A model generated the notes under the pieces. The model was not told where the DNA came from. It searched no databases and saw only the letters and a program-made list of their open reading frames with translations. A stretch of DNA of 64,000 nt from Candidatus Latescibacterota bacterium. Lineage in GTDB: Bacteria > Latescibacterota > UBA2968 > UBA8231. Of the stretch, positions 7,372 through 32,010 are shown one piece after another. Location of the stretch: the NCBI GenBank assembly GCA_965204725.1, contig OZ242005.1:3840001-3904000 (forward strand). The letters run 5' to 3'. The number at the start of each line of letters is the position of its first letter. Position 1 is the stretch's first letter. A program made the translations under genes and the position numbers.

Positions 7372-8555
7372 CAGAGCGACAACACCCAACGTGCGATCCT
7401 TGAGCACGTCCCTAGCGGTTGCCGCGTCCGCTGTATCGCCAGCGACCCCCGGCGGGCGCACGGGTTGCGGCCAAGCCTTGTAATCGCGGACGAACCGGCC
7501 CAATGACCGCAATCGACTGCGGACGCCGTGTATGCCGCTCTGAGTACGGCGTTGGGCAAGGTCCCTAACTCAAGGCTCGTGGCTATTGGCACACGTAGCG
7601 CGGATAGCGGCCATTGGTTTGAACGGCTATTGAAGGACGCCGACTTCTCGCTGTGCCATGCAGCGGACGCCGAAGATGACCCCTTTGACGAATCGACGTG
7701 GCTAAAGGCATGTCCTCAGTTGAAACGCTTGCCCCATCTACTCAAGGCGTTCCGGGAGGAAGCACGAGCGGCCCAACGTGATCCGGCCTTGCTTGCCCAA
7801 TTCAAGGCGTTGCGCTTGAACATGGGCGTCAGCGACGTGGTCGTCCTCTACTTGGTAACTCCTGACGAATGGTTGGCCGTAGAGGACGAAGTAACGACAA
7901 GCGCGAACAAGACCGGCCCTTGTGTTTGGGGCATTGACTTAGGGGCAACTGCGGCAATGAGCGCCGTTGCCGCATACTACCCGGAAACGGGGCGCATGGA
8001 CGCCATCGCAGCATTCCCCAATGACCCGCCGTTGGGCGTCCGGGAGCGTTTCGATGGCGTAAAACCGGGCTTGTATCAGAATATGGCGGATCGCGCCGAA
8101 TTGCTCCTGTTGGGTGACAAGGTGGTTCCGGTTGGGCAACTACTGAACGCCGCGCAACAGCGGTTGGGCTACCCGGACGCCATCGCTTGCGATAGATGGC
8201 GGTTGGGCGAACTAGAGGACGCTATGACGGACGCCGCACTCCTTGCCCCCGTCCAAGCGCGGGGCATGGGCTTTAGGGATGGGAGCGAAGACGTGCGCTT
8301 GTTCAAGACGGCCCTACTATGAAGGGCGCGTAACCCCCGTCCGCTCGCTCCTGCTGCGTTCCGCAGTTTCAGAAACAACGGCTCGTGCAAGACCCGGCGG
8401 GCAATGCGAAGATCGCAAAAAGCGGCGAGGGTGCTAGACGGCGCTATGGCCGCGACGACCCGGCCGTAGCCGGTGTGCTTGCTGTTGCCCTCGCTGAACG
8501 AATGCCGAAGAAGGTGGCCGTAGCGTTTGACCATATTCCGCTTGACCAGCTTTGA
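7372..8555 (+). pseudogene. terL: Phage terminase large subunit, 5'-truncated, with in-frame TGA at 7504 and frameshifts near 8319 and 8378
   Basis: AHGLRPSLVIADEPAQ* (Walker B), VAIGT, WGIDLG nuclease motif, GMGFRDGSEDVR; tail DPAGNAKIAK...GRDDPAVAGVLAV ends at TGA 8553-8555. Confidence 0.85.
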
Positions 8556-8580
8556 CATCACAGAGGACAAACTCTATGGT
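8552..8580 (+). promoter_or_regulatory. sigma70-type promoter P1, overlapped by palindromic site A
   Basis: TTGACA (8552-8557), 17 bp, TATGGT (8575-8580). Confidence 0.7.
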
Positions 8581-8585
8581 CTTGC

Positions 8586-8670
8586 GCGCCCCGGCCTCAT
8601 TGAAGAGACGCCCTTTGACGGGTTGGCGTCAATCCTGTATGCTGGTCGTGCGCCCCGGCCTCATTGAAGG
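8586..8670 (+). CRISPR. Two CRISPR half-repeats (type I-G/I-U-like 3' end); mini-array or solitary repeat units
   Basis: Exact 20-mer GCGCCCCGGCCTCATTGAAG at 8586-8605 and 8650-8669, 64-bp period; ends in ATTGAAG handle; 5' halves degenerate; no cas genes in window. Confidence 0.65.
8615..8643 (+). promoter_or_regulatory. sigma70-type promoter P2 within the inter-repeat spacer
   Basis: TTGACG (8615-8620), 17 bp, TATGCT (8638-8643). Confidence 0.7.
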
Positions 8671-8689
8671 AAGGAAGGGAAGGCCGCCG

Positions 8690-8719
8690 AACCAACGATA
8701 ACTAGAGTTATCGTTGGTT
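8690..8719. repeat. Perfect palindrome with 14-bp arms
   Basis: AACCAACGATAACT-AG-AGTTATCGTTGGTT. Confidence 0.9.
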
Positions 8720-8727
8720 ACAGCACT

Positions 8728-8759
8728 TCGACACCACAGAGTTTGTCCTCTATGGTGTC
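8728..8759 (+). promoter_or_regulatory. Promoter P3 overlapped by palindromic site B, upstream of the LRR gene
   Basis: TCGACA-N17-TATGGT (8728-8756); site GACACCACAGAG-TTTGTC-CTCTATGGTGTC (8730-8759). Confidence 0.6.
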
Positions 8760-8878
8760 CACCTTGACGCCCCAAAGGGCGATTAACAAGCTGCTGTCCG
8801 CTCCCTACCCTATCAGTCTCATACCCTTCGGCGCACTCAAGGCGGGTGCGCCATTAACCCAAACAAGGAGATACTCCT

Positions 8879-9712
8879 ATGTTTAAGTCTTTCAAAAACC
8901 TACTTGGCCTCAGCCTGCTGGCTTTCTTCGGCGTGTGGATGGGGTGCTCGTCCGAATCCTCGCCCGTCAGCCCTTCAAACAAGGCCGTGACGGACGATGA
9001 CGGATCAGCAACACAAGTATCGACGTTTACTGTTTCGACCGAGGTTTCCATTCCCGACGACAGTCTAAGGGTAGCGGTTACTCAAGGACTCTGGGCTTTG
9101 GTGGCAGAAGGGAAACTCGACATTCCTACGGGGTCAAACCCGCTTACAACGGCAAACCTTGCAAAGCTAGAAACGCTTTCCGCTGGCAGCAAAGGGATTG
9201 CGAATTTGAGCGGCCTTGAGCACGCTACCGACTTGAAAAGCCTGAACCTAAACGGGAACAACGTTGAGGACCTAGCGCCTTTGGCCAATCTGACCAAGTT
9301 GGAATATCTGAACTTGGAAAATAATCTCATTCCCCAAACGGGTTATTCTCATTTGGCTAATCTGACCAAGTTGACAAATCTTAGGATAGGCGGCCACAGA
9401 AACGCCGACATTGGCAGCGACACCCTAGAGGTGGTGGTTGAGAACATGACCAAGTTGACCGCTCTAAAGGTGAACCACATGGGGCTTACGGATATTTCTT
9501 TTTTGGAAAAGGAAAATCTGAAAGAGTTGCGATACTTAAACCTAAATGGCAACCGGGAGATTACGAATCTCAAACCGCTTGCTTGTCTGCCGAATCTGAA
9601 CGATTTGCGCGTAGAGAGGGTTGGTGCTGCTTACAACACCGTTACCGGCGAGGTAAATAAACTTCTCCTATTCTTGATAGGGGAAGGGGTATATGTAGAT
9701 TACATTACTTAG
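8879..9712 (+). CDS. Internalin-like leucine-rich-repeat lipoprotein
   Basis: Lipobox-like WMGC, IPDDSLR cap, repeats such as LSGLEHATDLKSLNLNGNNVEDLAPLANLTKL; AGGAG RBS; lower GC. Confidence 0.9.
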   Translation: MFKSFKNLLGLSLLAFFGVWMGCSSESSPVSPSNKAVTDDDGSATQVSTFTVSTEVSIPDDSLRVAVTQGLWALVAEGKLDIPTGSNPLTTANLAKLETLSAGSKGIANLSGLEHATDLKSLNLNGNNVEDLAPLANLTKLEYLNLENNLIPQTGYSHLANLTKLTNLRIGGHRNADIGSDTLEVVVENMTKLTALKVNHMGLTDISFLEKENLKELRYLNLNGNREITNLKPLACLPNLNDLRVERVGAAYNTVTGEVNKLLLFLIGEGVYVDYIT

Positions 9713-9727
9713 CCCCATGCAGTAGAT

Positions 9728-10027
9728 CGTCCTCTACGCAGAGGACGCCCAACGCCCCGTTGCCGCTTGCCGGTGACGGGGCGTTGCTATGCCGCTCCAA
9801 TACGCCGCTCGTTGGCGTCCGCGCACGATAGACCATTGACCGCCCCCGGCGCACGGGCGATATTGGCAATCCTGTCCTTGAGAGAGACAGGTAGCGCGGC
9901 GCGGCTGACCTACCGGCAGAGTAAACCGGGCGCACGGAAAGTGAAGGGCGGCGTTGGTTGGGCCGATTGCGTAAGCGCGGCCACCGGGTCTAACATCCCC
10001 GGCTTCTTGGGCCAACGCCGCTTTTTT
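9728..10027 (+). ncRNA. Candidate structured RNA / hairpin array ending in a three-way junction and U-tract
   Basis: Consecutive stems 9728-9747, 9750-9786, 9871-9891; closing stem 9948-9957/10012-10021 enclosing two hairpins, then T6. Confidence 0.45.
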
Positions 10028-10042
10028 ATGCCTTGCCCCGTC

Positions 10043-10260
10043 CGCCCCCGGATTTTGTGCAGTGAACAACCCAGCTTGGTTTTGTAAATGGCCGTCACCT
10101 GTTTGGGTTGCCAAACTAGTCGAGCACCAACCCCAACATATAGGGCCTGCGTTGGGCCGAAGCGATACAACATATAGGGGTTGACGCCCTTTGGCCGCGC
10201 TTGCCGATCCGCTACGACCGCGCGCCCCCGGATTTTGTGCAGTGAACATTCAAGCTTGGT
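10043..10260. repeat. 38-bp direct repeat, 180-bp period, with nested 12-bp repeats
   Basis: CGCCCCCGGATTTTGTGCAGTGAACA exact at 10043 and 10223 (35/38 overall); CAACATATAGGG at 10134 and 10168. Confidence 0.9.
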
Positions 10261-10431
10261 GGTCAATCGACGACCACTAAACATCCTCATCGAGTAAAAA
10301 TCTTCTCGCTAACGCCCCCCCAAGCCCCAAGCGCCAATACCCCAACTACCCGCCCAAACCGCTTAGGCGGCGTTACAGCGGTCCTCAAGCCCTTGCATGG
10401 GTTATGCCCGTCCACCATCGTCCTTCTCATA

Positions 10432-10755
10432 ATGTCCACTTCGGCAGAGAGAGCAGAAGTCTATCTGACGCGGCGTTGGCAGCGGTTGCGAGCGGACGTC
10501 CTCAAGCGCGCCAACTGGCTTTGTCAGTGCAGCGACTGCCGACAGCATGGCCGGACGAAGCAGGCCGATTTGGTCCACCACGTGGAACGATGGCAAGCGG
10601 CGTCCGGTGACCGGCGGCAAGAGTTGGCTTTCAATCCTGACAATCTCTTGGCCGTCAACTTCGACTGCCATGCTCGCATACATGCAGCGGACGCCCGGAC
10701 GCCCGAAGATCGGGCATGGGCAACCGCCGTTCATTCACTAATCGACGAGGTTTGA
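10432..10755 (+). CDS. Phage HNH endonuclease (gp74-like packaging cofactor)
   Basis: Y..RRWQRLR..VL...WLC, VHHV, NLLAVNFDCHARIH; directly upstream of capsid gene. Confidence 0.88.
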   Translation: MSTSAERAEVYLTRRWQRLRADVLKRANWLCQCSDCRQHGRTKQADLVHHVERWQAASGDRRQELAFNPDNLLAVNFDCHARIHAADARTPEDRAWATAVHSLIDEV

Positions 10756-10759
10756 AGTA

Positions 10760-12013
10760 ATGACCAACTCCCAAAAACTGGCACTTCGGTTAAGCGAGGT
10801 TCGCCAGAAACTCAACGAGCTGCTCGCAATCGACAACCCGAATGACGAGCAGAGGGCCGAACTTGCTCAACTGAGCGGCGAATATCCGGGGCTTGAAACC
10901 CAGTATAGGGCCGCAGTAATCGCGGAAAGCGAAGAAAGCGAAACCCGCACAATCGACGACGACGCCCAAAGCGCGGAATACCGGCAGCTGGTGGACCGGG
11001 TAGAGTTGGGCGCGTATCTCATTGAAGCGGCAACGGGGCGTCCGGTGGACGGGGCCGAACAAGAGTTGCGCGCCGAAGTGTTTGGCGACGACGCCCGACA
11101 GAACCTAGTACCGTGGGAAGCGTTGCTACCCCGTGACGAGGACGAAGATCGCGCCGACAGCCCCGTCAATATCGGCAGCACTTCGGGCGTTGGCGTCAAT
11201 CAGCAAACCATCTTGGCGCGTGTGTTCGCGGATACGGCGGCCATGTTCGCGGGCGTTACTATGCCCAACGTGGGCATTGGGGATGCGTCTTACCCGGTAT
11301 TCGAGGACGGCGCAACCGCCGAATTGACCGCCAAAGGGACGGCCAAAGACGCCGAGGCCGCGACGATTACGGCTAAGGTGCTCAATCCAACTCGCTTGAC
11401 CGCTCGCTACGTCCTCAGAGTAGAGGACGCAAACAGGCTAATGGGCTTAGAAGAAAGCCTACGTGCCGACTTGCGCGGCACGTTGGGCGAACAACTGGAC
11501 AAGCAGATAATCGCTGGGGATGGAACCAGCCCGAACTTCGCGGGGTTTTTCGACGATGGGGCGTCCATTTCTTCGGCTACGGCCCCGACCGCGCAATCCA
11601 AGTACGAGGACGTTGCCGTCCTCGCGGCCAATGCCATTGACGGCAAGTACTGCCGGTCCGCAATGGGCGCGCGGTTGCTTTTCAATGTTACGGGCATACA
11701 GCGGGCGTCCGCGCTATTCCTAACCAACGGCGGGTATTCGGCAGCGGACTATTTGGCCGAACATTCGGGCGGTATCATGGCGTCCGCACACGCCCCGGTG
11801 AAAGCGAGCAAGAAAAGCAAAATCCTGACCTACCGAATGGACCGGGGCGCGGGGAGTGCGGTGTGTCCGGTGTGGCAAGGTCTTGAGATTATCCGAGACC
11901 AATTCAGCGGCGCAATGCGCGGCGAAATCGCCTTGACCGCCATAGCCCTACATTCGTTTGCGATCTTGCGGACCGACGCCTACTACATCCAAGAAATCCA
12001 AGAGGACGCCTAG
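10760..12013 (+). CDS. HK97-fold phage major capsid protein with N-terminal coiled-coil (delta) domain
   Basis: Helical N-terminus, GEQLDKQIIAGDGTSPNFAG, GLEIIRDQFSGA.RGEIALTA; phage gene context. Confidence 0.8.
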   Translation: MTNSQKLALRLSEVRQKLNELLAIDNPNDEQRAELAQLSGEYPGLETQYRAAVIAESEESETRTIDDDAQSAEYRQLVDRVELGAYLIEAATGRPVDGAEQELRAEVFGDDARQNLVPWEALLPRDEDEDRADSPVNIGSTSGVGVNQQTILARVFADTAAMFAGVTMPNVGIGDASYPVFEDGATAELTAKGTAKDAEAATITAKVLNPTRLTARYVLRVEDANRLMGLEESLRADLRGTLGEQLDKQIIAGDGTSPNFAGFFDDGASISSATAPTAQSKYEDVAVLAANAIDGKYCRSAMGARLLFNVTGIQRASALFLTNGGYSAADYLAEHSGGIMASAHAPVKASKKSKILTYRMDRGAGSAVCPVWQGLEIIRDQFSGAMRGEIALTAIALHSFAILRTDAYYIQEIQEDA

Positions 12014-31032: not shown

Positions 31033-32010
31033 TTACGGCCTAAGCAGGCCCTGCAGATAGGCGACCGAGGCTTCGAGTTGGGCCATTTCATACTCTACTC
31101 GGGCCTCGGGGGATTCACCGCGCTCGTGCGGCGTTTGCCAGTCCTCGGGGTCACCAGCCGCCTGATGCAGGGTGCGGATGGCACGTATGGCCTCTGGGAG
31201 CGGTCTGTGGGGAAAGGCCGCCCACCAGTCCTCTTCCAAAAGGCGAATGTGGCGGGCGACACTCGCGCCAAGTTCAATGCAGCCCTCGACATGCGGCACC
31301 TCGCGGTCGAATAGCGCGATGATCTCCGGCCAATCAACGACCCCGTCGCCGATGGCACAGCGCTTGAGGCGATAGCCCGAGGGCGTGGGGTGGACCGCGT
31401 AGTCCTTGATGTGGACGTGTTTGAGGATGGGCAAGATGCGCTTGGCAAAGGATAGGGGATGCTCGCCGACGGCAAGGGCATTGCCTACATCCAAGGTGAC
31501 GCCCAACTGCGGGCTGCCGACTTTTTCGCACAGCGACAGCAATTCCCACGAGCACAGATCTTGGTGGTTTTCAATACCCACCGGAATACCGTATTCCTCG
31601 GCGAGTGGCATGACTTCTTTGAAGGGCTGTACCAAGGCTTCGATGTAAGCCCGCATCCCCTCGGCACCATACTCGGTGCGGTTGCCTTCGAGGAGGCGGC
31701 TGACCGTGGTGCGCACAGCGCGGGCACCGGTTTGGTGCGCGGTCTCAATGGCTTGGCGCAGCGGCGCGATGTCTGCGGCGTAGTTGTCGCCGCCCGTGTC
31801 CAAAAACAGATTGAGACCAGCGCGCGTCTCGGCAAAAACCGCCCGCTCCTCGGGCGAGCAGTCGCCCAGCCATTGGGCTGCGAATTCGACGCTGCGGAGG
31901 CCCTGGTCCTTAGCCAAGCGCGTCAGGCCCTCGGGAGTGTGGGGATCCATGGCGCGACCGGCTTGGCGGTGGACGCCGGTAAAGCTCCAAGCGCAGAGGC
32001 CAATTTTCAT
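31033..32010 (-). CDS. Sugar-phosphate isomerase/epimerase (TIM barrel)
   Basis: IENHQD, LDVGN, HVHIKD, GDGVVDW, IE motifs. Confidence 0.88.
   Translation of the reverse strand: MKIGLCAWSFTGVHRQAGRAMDPHTPEGLTRLAKDQGLRSVEFAAQWLGDCSPEERAVFAETRAGLNLFLDTGGDNYAADIAPLRQAIETAHQTGARAVRTTVSRLLEGNRTEYGAEGMRAYIEALVQPFKEVMPLAEEYGIPVGIENHQDLCSWELLSLCEKVGSPQLGVTLDVGNALAVGEHPLSFAKRILPILKHVHIKDYAVHPTPSGYRLKRCAIGDGVVDWPEIIALFDREVPHVEGCIELGASVARHIRLLEEDWWAAFPHRPLPEAIRAIRTLHQAAGDPEDWQTPHERGESPEARVEYEMAQLEASVAYLQGLLRP

Follow-up and report, generated by a model that had tools for sequence, protein, structure and literature searches.

Paired dyad sites around a CRISPR-derived module in a Latescibacterota prophage remnant are most likely promoter copies rather than an invertible DNA switch

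In a 64,000-nucleotide stretch of a Candidatus Latescibacterota bacterium genome (contig OZ242005.1, positions 3,840,001 to 3,904,000; called here the window), two 30-bp sites, A and B, stand upstream of a gene for a leucine-rich-repeat (LRR) protein. Each site has two inverted 12-bp arms around a 6-bp core, and the two cores are oriented in opposite directions. Is the DNA between them turned over by a recombinase, or do the sites serve as a shared operator? A first-pass annotation, made from the letters of the window, had proposed both. We found that A and B are most likely promoter copies rather than the ends of a DNA flip switch. The best explanation, which we hold at even confidence, is that they are two copies of one sigma-70-type promoter unit in which the dyad in the spacer acts as an operator. 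The sites sit in a decayed prophage, and the DNA between them, judged by its sequence, is a CRISPR-derived insert with the 3′ halves of type I-G repeats. Features are collected in Table 1; coordinates refer to the window unless preceded by C1, which marks other positions in the same genome.

Sites A and B and their promoter-like matches

The letters of both sites were read exactly as the first-pass annotation had given them. Its comparison also held: the cores GACAAA and TTTGTC are exact reverse complements (6/6), and A agrees with the reverse-complemented B at 25/30 positions. A single 12-6-12 palindrome is unremarkable, as 61 with at most one mismatch were counted in the chromosome versus 23 in one shuffled copy. 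What beats chance is a related pair 176 bp apart. The motif CACAGAG-N6-CTCTATGG with at most two mismatches had three matches in the window (A, and B on either strand), versus a mean of 0.06 in shuffles, of which 0/100 reached three. The exact matches in the 5.43-Mb genome were A and B only. Looser site patterns added one genome match only, a degenerate site in a paralogous locus at C1:~4094230.

A repeat search returned the pair in both registers: inverted (27 nt, arms 152 nt apart and 89% complementary) and direct (31 nt, 8550-8580 versus 8726-8756, 74%). The arms agree at 21/24 positions in direct register versus 19/24 in inverted register. The positions that break the dyad, a C in the left arm and an A in the right arm, are identical in A and B, so that only the core is clearly flipped (0/6 in direct comparison, 6/6 as reverse complement).

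A consensus scan of the 800 bp from 8200 to 9000 gave three promoter-like matches, all on the plus strand and all with 17-nt spacers, versus a shuffle mean of 0.3. As had been annotated, A and B each cover the -35/-10 interval of one match (P1 and P3, respectively). Each also fills the 17-nt spacer of its match. The sigma-70 consensus applies to this organism, since 24/48 tRNA upstream regions scored at least 9/12 for it versus 64/2000 random 120-nt pieces; a Bacteroidota-type promoter motif was found in 1/48. The promoter part of the shared promoter/operator proposal is thus supported. A dyad that fills the spacer of a promoter lies in the classical place of a repressor. The -10 of P1 ends 5 nt before the first of two CRISPR-derived half-repeats and that of P2 ends 6 nt before the second, so that RNAs from these promoters would begin at the repeat-derived part.

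These observations are consistent with the following arrangement. Site B would be the resident copy; it borders on the 5′ side a phage-derived accessory cassette, made up of leader and LRR lipoprotein gene, just behind the terminase gene. Site A would be a second copy, which either arrived with or was duplicated for a cassette of ~145 nt holding the half-repeats, the spacer-like stretches and a hairpin. A would drive a small RNA starting at its repeat-derived part, and the LRR mRNA would start from B, near 8763. The dyad would be the putative binding site of a dimeric phage regulator that switched both transcripts together, and it probably served to couple the LRR gene with the small RNAs. Since the remnant does not encode that regulator, both promoters would probably be unregulated here.

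Table 1. Positions of the sites, promoter-like matches, repeat-derived elements and neighbouring genes in the window
Feature	Position	Strand	Description
Site A	8554-8583		GACATCACAGAG-GACAAA-CTCTATGGTCTT; 12-6-12 dyad, arms 8/12 self-complementary
Site B	8730-8759		GACACCACAGAG-TTTGTC-CTCTATGGTGTC; arms 11/12 self-complementary
P1	8552-8580	+	TTGACA-17-TATGGT, 10/12; consensus scan; inside site A
P2	8615-8643	+	TTGACG-17-TATGCT, 9/12; consensus scan; between sites A and B
P3	8728-8756	+	TCGACA-17-TATGGT, 9/12; consensus scan; inside site B, ~120 nt upstream of the LRR gene start
Half-repeat 1 (20 nt)	8586..8605	+	3′ stem strand and handle of a widespread CRISPR repeat; Rfam CRISPR-DR16, 15.7 bits
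Spacer-like stretch 1	8606..8649	+	holds P2; partly like the spacer of the G006 mini-array
Half-repeat 2	8650..8669	+	exact copy of half-repeat 1, preceded by GGTCGTG; CRISPR-DR16, 17.6 bits
Spacer-like stretch 2 and hairpin	8670..8725	+	purine-rich, then a perfect 14-bp hairpin (8690-8703/8706-8719) with no T-run
Large terminase (TerL) fragment	7528..8322	+	C-terminal nuclease domain of a phage large terminase; Pfam TerL_nuclease E 1.6e-6; PHROG terminase large subunit E 2.6e-26
LRR gene leader	8760..8878	+	from 8780 on common to the third LRR copy, which has no palindromic site
LRR protein	8879..9712	+	lipoprotein-type N-terminus (read from the sequence); Pfam LRR_4 E 5.8e-15
HNH endonuclease	10393-10755		profile scans of open reading frames
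Capsid protein	10760-12013		profile scans of open reading frames

Relatives with a single site

The genome holds a paralogous locus with a TerL fragment and an LRR gene. Window 7766-8539 corresponds to C1:4095001-4094230 at 84.6%, and window 8738-9785 to C1:4094228-4093187 at 78%. Because the matches end at 8539 and resume at 8738, the paralog is without 8540-8737. It carries one site, ACATCCCTAGAG-TGTATC-CTCTACGGTGTC. A contig of run X4 (labelled sponge metagenome) follows 8387-8546 with 2 differences, has 24 other letters (GCCCTTTAGACCGTAGAGTGTAAA) that make up a left arm and a core, and then follows 8748-8898 with 17 differences and 8 gaps. Depth over 8548-8755 did not exceed 0.72 in run X4 and was 0 in run X5, and the flanks were covered in both. 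A third LRR copy (C1:3471421) has the leader in common only from window 8780 and has no site. Because the relatives carry one site, the counterpart of B, and no module, B is the site that was resident at the LRR cassette's 5′ edge, and the extra 177-198 nt of this genome brings the second. The cores vary among lineages (TTTGTC, TGTATC, TGTAAA), and the inner arms (YAGAG and CTCTA, with CC and GG outside) are kept in 4/4 sites.

The unit of TerL fragment and LRR gene as a whole (window 7766-9785; C1:4095001-4093187) is duplicated with an identical left truncation point; the remnant was broken before it was copied, or moved, as a unit of 2 kb. Run X4 had contigs resembling either copy, and paralog-like contigs were also present in run X5.

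Searches further afield gave no further relatives. In 75 other genomes of the family the site motif had 15 matches, all with 3 mismatches, versus 13 for a reversed-pattern control, and it was absent from the 71 loci of other genomes that hold the half-repeat described below. Loci L018 and L019, matched through a short conserved stretch, were not homologous. Among viral contigs the half-repeat query had one match, in a coding region, the right-arm-plus-flank pattern had none, and the TerL fragment had no relative; the 10 matches of the site pattern were rejected for their unrelated GC content and context, the most palindromic of them (L046) lying inside a phage structural gene. Metagenome contigs held no relative of the TerL and two matches of the site pattern, both in unrelated coding sequence. 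A phage genome collection gave no DNA match and no TerL match. An intact relative of the phage was thus not found in the viral contigs, metagenome contigs or phage genomes.

Several points weigh against the explanation of A and B as promoter copies with an operator. First, with just three occurrences of the motif genome-wide, a regulator would have been dedicated to it and is now absent; if there was one, it was phage-borne and is gone. The first-pass annotation had seen no cognate protein in the remnant, and we agree: the 20 open reading frames (ORFs) of 2287-23442 were without a helix-turn-helix (HTH) family (E <= 0.01), and neither these nor the 13 ORFs scanned with PHROG offered an HTH regulator candidate. 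Second, site B and the paralog site agree at 22/27 positions (81%), with 78% in the flanks; the arms are no better conserved, and selection on the dyad is therefore not demonstrated. Third, the paralog keeps the inner dyad without a -35 at 17 nt (TTGACC stands 21 nt from TACGGT), so dyad and good promoter do not always go together. This argues either that the dyad is not a mere side effect of the promoter or that it was simply inherited. Fourth, an operator leaves the exact reverse-complement cores (a chance of 1 in 4096) unexplained. In addition, P2 may copy a target promoter in spacer-like fashion instead of working as a promoter, and the stretch was found in no RNA run, the starts being predicted from the sequence.

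Some of these points would suit promoter copies by descent only, in which the palindromy is a functionless inherited accident of the spacer and nothing binds. The conservation of B at the level of its surroundings, the different cores among lineages, the fairly high number of 12-6-12 palindromes in the chromosome and the lack of a regulator gene among the scanned ORFs all agree with it. However, all four sites keep YAGAG-N6-CTCTA with CC and GG outside, even that of the paralog, which has lost the promoter spacing, and B is an 11/12 palindrome whose fold is well beyond that of shuffles (z -4.7 on the plus strand, -6.8 on the minus strand). We regard a functionless dyad as unlikely.

The folding results bear on a further possibility, that the sites are structural hairpins in RNA or single-stranded DNA, acting as terminator, insulator or processing site at the cassette edges. 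Site B folds at -15.7 kcal/mol on the plus strand (0/200 shuffles as good) and at -22.1 kcal/mol on the minus strand, where its mismatch turns into a G-U pair; a flip of the loop would itself imply that the hairpin forms at least in DNA. However, site A, the poorer palindrome, folds weakly on the plus strand (-6.9 kcal/mol, z -0.9, 39/200 shuffles as good). No T-run follows either site and a terminator scan had no match at either. The four sites show no compensatory changes; their mismatches fall at unpaired positions that differ or coincide from site to site. Should P1 and P3 fire, each site would lie mostly upstream of its own transcript. A role as structural hairpins is very unlikely on these grounds.

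Orientation of the segment and origin of the flipped core

Tyrosine recombinase sites of the loxP/FRT/dif type have inverted arms around a short asymmetric core. Sites A and B share this geometry (12-6-12, with cores identical in opposite orientation, ~175 bp apart and enclosing a promoter segment). The first-pass annotation had accordingly proposed an invertible promoter switch, in which a recombinase would flip ~8572-8741. This would turn the RNAs and the LRR gene off together. The inverted repeat found above is what such a switch would use, and the predicted inverted product does have the hexamers that had been claimed, with the -10 of P1 weakened to TGTGGT and the -35 of P3 removed.

The switch itself was not supported. 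Spanning contigs of run X1 (933 nt, 7959-8891) and run X3 (599 nt, 8187-8785) both agreed with the window in orientation, with 0 differences, and the spanning contigs were listed without any strand-changing joint, a weak negative as contigs drop minor forms. Three tyrosine recombinase genes (PF00589) were found in the genome, at C1:717716, 1689344 and 3165752 (0.72, 1.69 and 3.17 Mb), the nearest 683 kb off, although one of them could act in trans, and a serine recombinase (PF00239) had no match in the genome. The asymmetries of the arms stay put while the core flips, which differs from an inversion of whole sites, as does the slightly better agreement of the arms in direct register. The relatives vary in the presence of the segment, not in its orientation, and single-site relatives without the module indicate gain or loss of DNA rather than flipping. 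An invertible switch is therefore most improbable. Cumulative GC skew was irregular and gave no terminus at which to look for a chromosomal dif site.

Gain or loss of the segment could also come about if A and B were boundary sites at which the small-RNA cassette is put in behind the terminase gene, or taken out, by a tyrosine recombinase, Xer-like or of the phage. Integron cassettes and plasmid dif modules are thought to move by such sites, and plasmid dif modules are bracketed by oppositely oriented Xer sites. The lengths of arms and core fit, the cores are identical when read on opposite strands, and this genome has two sites and the module where relatives have one site and none. However, a circle that integrates at one site leaves two sites whose cores point the same way, and here they are opposite. 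With direct asymmetries and inverted cores, A and B form neither a whole-site direct nor a whole-site inverted pair. The sites were recovered neither from the 75 other genomes of the family, where matches hardly exceeded the control, nor from the 71 half-repeat loci, and no recombinase gene lies within 683 kb. We consider such boundary sites quite improbable. Similarly doubtful is the wider proposal that A and B are crossover sites of a phage cassette-exchange system, in which a tyrosine recombinase acting in trans trades promoter-bearing anti-CRISPR RNA cassettes behind the terminase. If true, it would account for the opposite cores as well as for the relatives with a single site, and it would be a new route by which phages trade RNA counter-defence.

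For A and B as promoter copies, the flipped core would be a mutational by-product, arising either by a hairpin-loop flip through template switching or in an inverted copy that was later adjusted. When A and B are aligned as direct copies, their sole large difference is the 6-bp loop, which lies inverted between stems of 12 bp. Alternatively, A is an inverted copy with two positions changed back, one of them the essential A of the -10. The arm counts in the two registers mildly favour the direct copy with a loop flip. Neither origin needs a recombinase.

Plastid genomes commonly show hairpin-loop inversions flanked by inverted repeats of 8-50 bp (PMC6387583), and template switching at imperfect palindromes is an established route of mutation in Escherichia coli (PMC7202029). 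The inverted segment here is exactly the loop between stems within the 8-50 bp definition, and as in the plastid small inversions the flip is limited to the loop between stem-forming inverted repeats (PMC6387583). It differs from them in that they are found mainly in plastids, whereas the present case concerns one copy of a duplicated bacterial promoter and is inferred from two sequences. The core flip would be a clean bacterial example of a hairpin-loop inversion, of a kind that can mislead readers into calling a recombination switch.

The CRISPR-derived module and its prophage setting

The two half-repeats, GCGCCCCGGCCTCATTGAAG in both cases, are 20 nt long and identical, and they stand 64 nt apart. 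Neither is preceded by the 5′ stem strand (CCGGGG...), and the hairpin of the repeat is not kept; the Rfam CRISPR-DR16 scores of 17.6 and 15.7 bits are below the cut-off of 35. Arrays of congeners have 37-nt repeats whose 3′ half is the half-repeat, with 19/20 identity to those of genomes G004 and G028. The array repeat GTTTTCCGGGGTTTCTTCGCCCCGGCCTCATTGAAGC has 25 copies in the G004 locus, and a close variant has 12 copies in G028. The exact 20-mer (20/20) was found in 71 loci of other genomes, of which 43/71 are arrays. The G004 array adjoins genes for GSU0053, GSU0054, Cas3 and Cas4-Cas1, a set which we take to be subtype I-G. GSU0053 was found in 11/30 other species of the genus; in this genome there was no match for Cas1, Cas6_C or GSU0053.

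In a further congener, G006, a two-repeat mini-array lies just upstream of the cas4-cas1 gene within the cas locus. Its second repeat begins GGTCGT-CGCCCCGG, an unusual start in common with the second unit of the window, and its spacer opens with bases like those of the first unit. The module looks like a captured copy of a G006-like mini-array, and the hairpin at 8690-8719 is likely the 3′ end of the small-RNA cassette. A search for targets of the spacer-like stretches gave only 9-11-nt matches in four congener cas-locus stretches, about as expected by chance. No known RNA family reached its gathering score in the window, and at a loose threshold the matches were the CRISPR-DR16 sub-threshold scores and noise. 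A k-mer finder for CRISPR arrays gave dispersed repeats only in this genome, a crude search that short or degenerate arrays could escape. A third half-repeat in the LRR leader after site B was rejected, as its alignment score was reached by 399/2000 shuffles.

Other repeat-like units were noted. The G006 mini-array (L139:13340-13460, equal to G006:C401 ~31340-31460; also L016:1485-1590) is inside the type I-G locus and looks like a host regulator of the CreR/CreA kind, resembling a CRISPR RNA (crRNA). From its spacer, 14 nt recur at L139:9589 in the same locus, upstream of the GSU0053 gene; another species has 16 nt of it at L064:16423, ~230 nt upstream of a 1774-codon frame adjoining a restriction-modification gene. 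In G004, one degenerate repeat with a spacer-like stretch (L063:5570-5640; G004:C3 ~31570-31640) lies ~500 nt upstream of a 478-codon frame that opens a run of frames with I-G cas genes, so that G004 joins G006 as a congener whose cas locus holds a crRNA-like unit. In a gammaproteobacterial metagenome-assembled genome (CAXXDW010000003.1), a half-repeat that lacks the 5′ stem strand stands alone (L066:1480-1530). Its flanks resemble the second unit of the window (…CTGGGTCATGC before, GAAGGAAGG after), and it is a possible independent example of the half-repeat design.

Within the genome of the window, C1:1209640-1209690 holds a full-length solitary repeat with both stem strands and the handle and with a few changes, which may be the last trace of a lost CRISPR locus. 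At C1:2957760-2957800 there is a solitary repeat-like unit with its own hairpin (the stem altered on both sides, then TCATTGAAGC). It runs antisense within another LRR gene's 5′ leader, close to the intact terminase gene (C1:2951345), so that the genome has two separate loci at which an LRR gene stands beside an I-G repeat-like sequence. Genome-wide there are 6 copies of the 12-mer GGCCTCATTGAA, versus 0.49 expected.

The genes around the sites are those of a prophage in decay. The TerL fragment is frame-broken after 8322, and its homology to other TerL copies continues in other frames to ~8539. An intact TerL of 511 aa at C1:2951345 ends just past the codons equivalent to window ~8539, with an HNH gene directly after it; the stretch from ~8540 up to the HNH gene of the window is therefore accessory DNA behind the terminase gene. 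To the right of the LRR gene, window 9836-10290 is a multi-copy repeat with an internal 38-nt repeat and further copies at C1:1687788, 114519 and 3473398. Contig depth in run X1 over it was ~1331, versus ~200 nearby, and the 1.688-Mb copy is ~1.2 kb from one of the three tyrosine recombinase genes of the genome. A separate dispersed palindromic repeat of ~60 nt (…GGGATCGAGGGCGTCCCGCCCTCGACGAGGGCAAGATGCCCTCGATCC…), similar to the repetitive extragenic palindromic (REP) type, has ~37 copies genome-wide, e.g. at C1:70330-70420.

Anti-CRISPR promoters carry operator dyads, and in the Aca2 system of phage ZF40 IR1 has N6 spacing and a less symmetric IR2 lies nearby (PMC6765145). The present sites are alike in having a 6-nt-gap dyad within a phage promoter that would drive an anti-CRISPR function, and in being two close dyads of unequal symmetry, near-perfect IR1 and degraded IR2 corresponding to B and A. 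Unlike in that system, no aca or HTH gene follows, the dyads lie in two promoters rather than one, the product would be RNA together with an LRR lipoprotein, and the operator role is putative. The sites are thus a variant of a promoter with an embedded dyad, with an unusual, well-defined loop flip.

The module between them invites comparison with solitary repeat units or RNA anti-CRISPRs (Racr; PMC10651486) and with viral crRNA-like RNAs (Cracr; bioRxiv 10.1101/2024.10.29.618823). As in these, a sequence resembling the repeat of the host group lies on a phage-derived element (with terminase, HNH and capsid remnants), apart from cas genes and directly behind promoter-like sites (P1 and P2). The spacer-like stretch followed by a hairpin recalls the psiR-psiS-terminator design of CracrVA1 (bioRxiv 10.1101/2024.10.29.618823). 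In contrast to both, only the 3′ half of the repeat is present here, the promoter -10 replaces the 5′ stem strand, and the Rfam scores are below the cut-off; the subtype is I-G, no cas genes were found in the host genome, and activity is putative. The term "I-G" has 0 occurrences in the main text of PMC10651486 and of bioRxiv 10.1101/2024.10.29.618823. The framed module may be regarded as a variant of the solitary-repeat or crRNA-like phage RNAs for subtype I-G.

The sites are thus most likely ordinary promoter/operator copies; the promoter-driven pair of I-G half-repeats that they frame in a prophage remnant is less ordinary. If the promoters are active, the design is compact, as the -10 replaces the 5′ stem of the repeat and the RNA begins at the handle half without Cas6-type processing. 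If true, RNA-based anti-CRISPRs or crRNA-like decoys would extend to type I-G, and the locus would show how such a cassette is wired into the accessory regions of phages.

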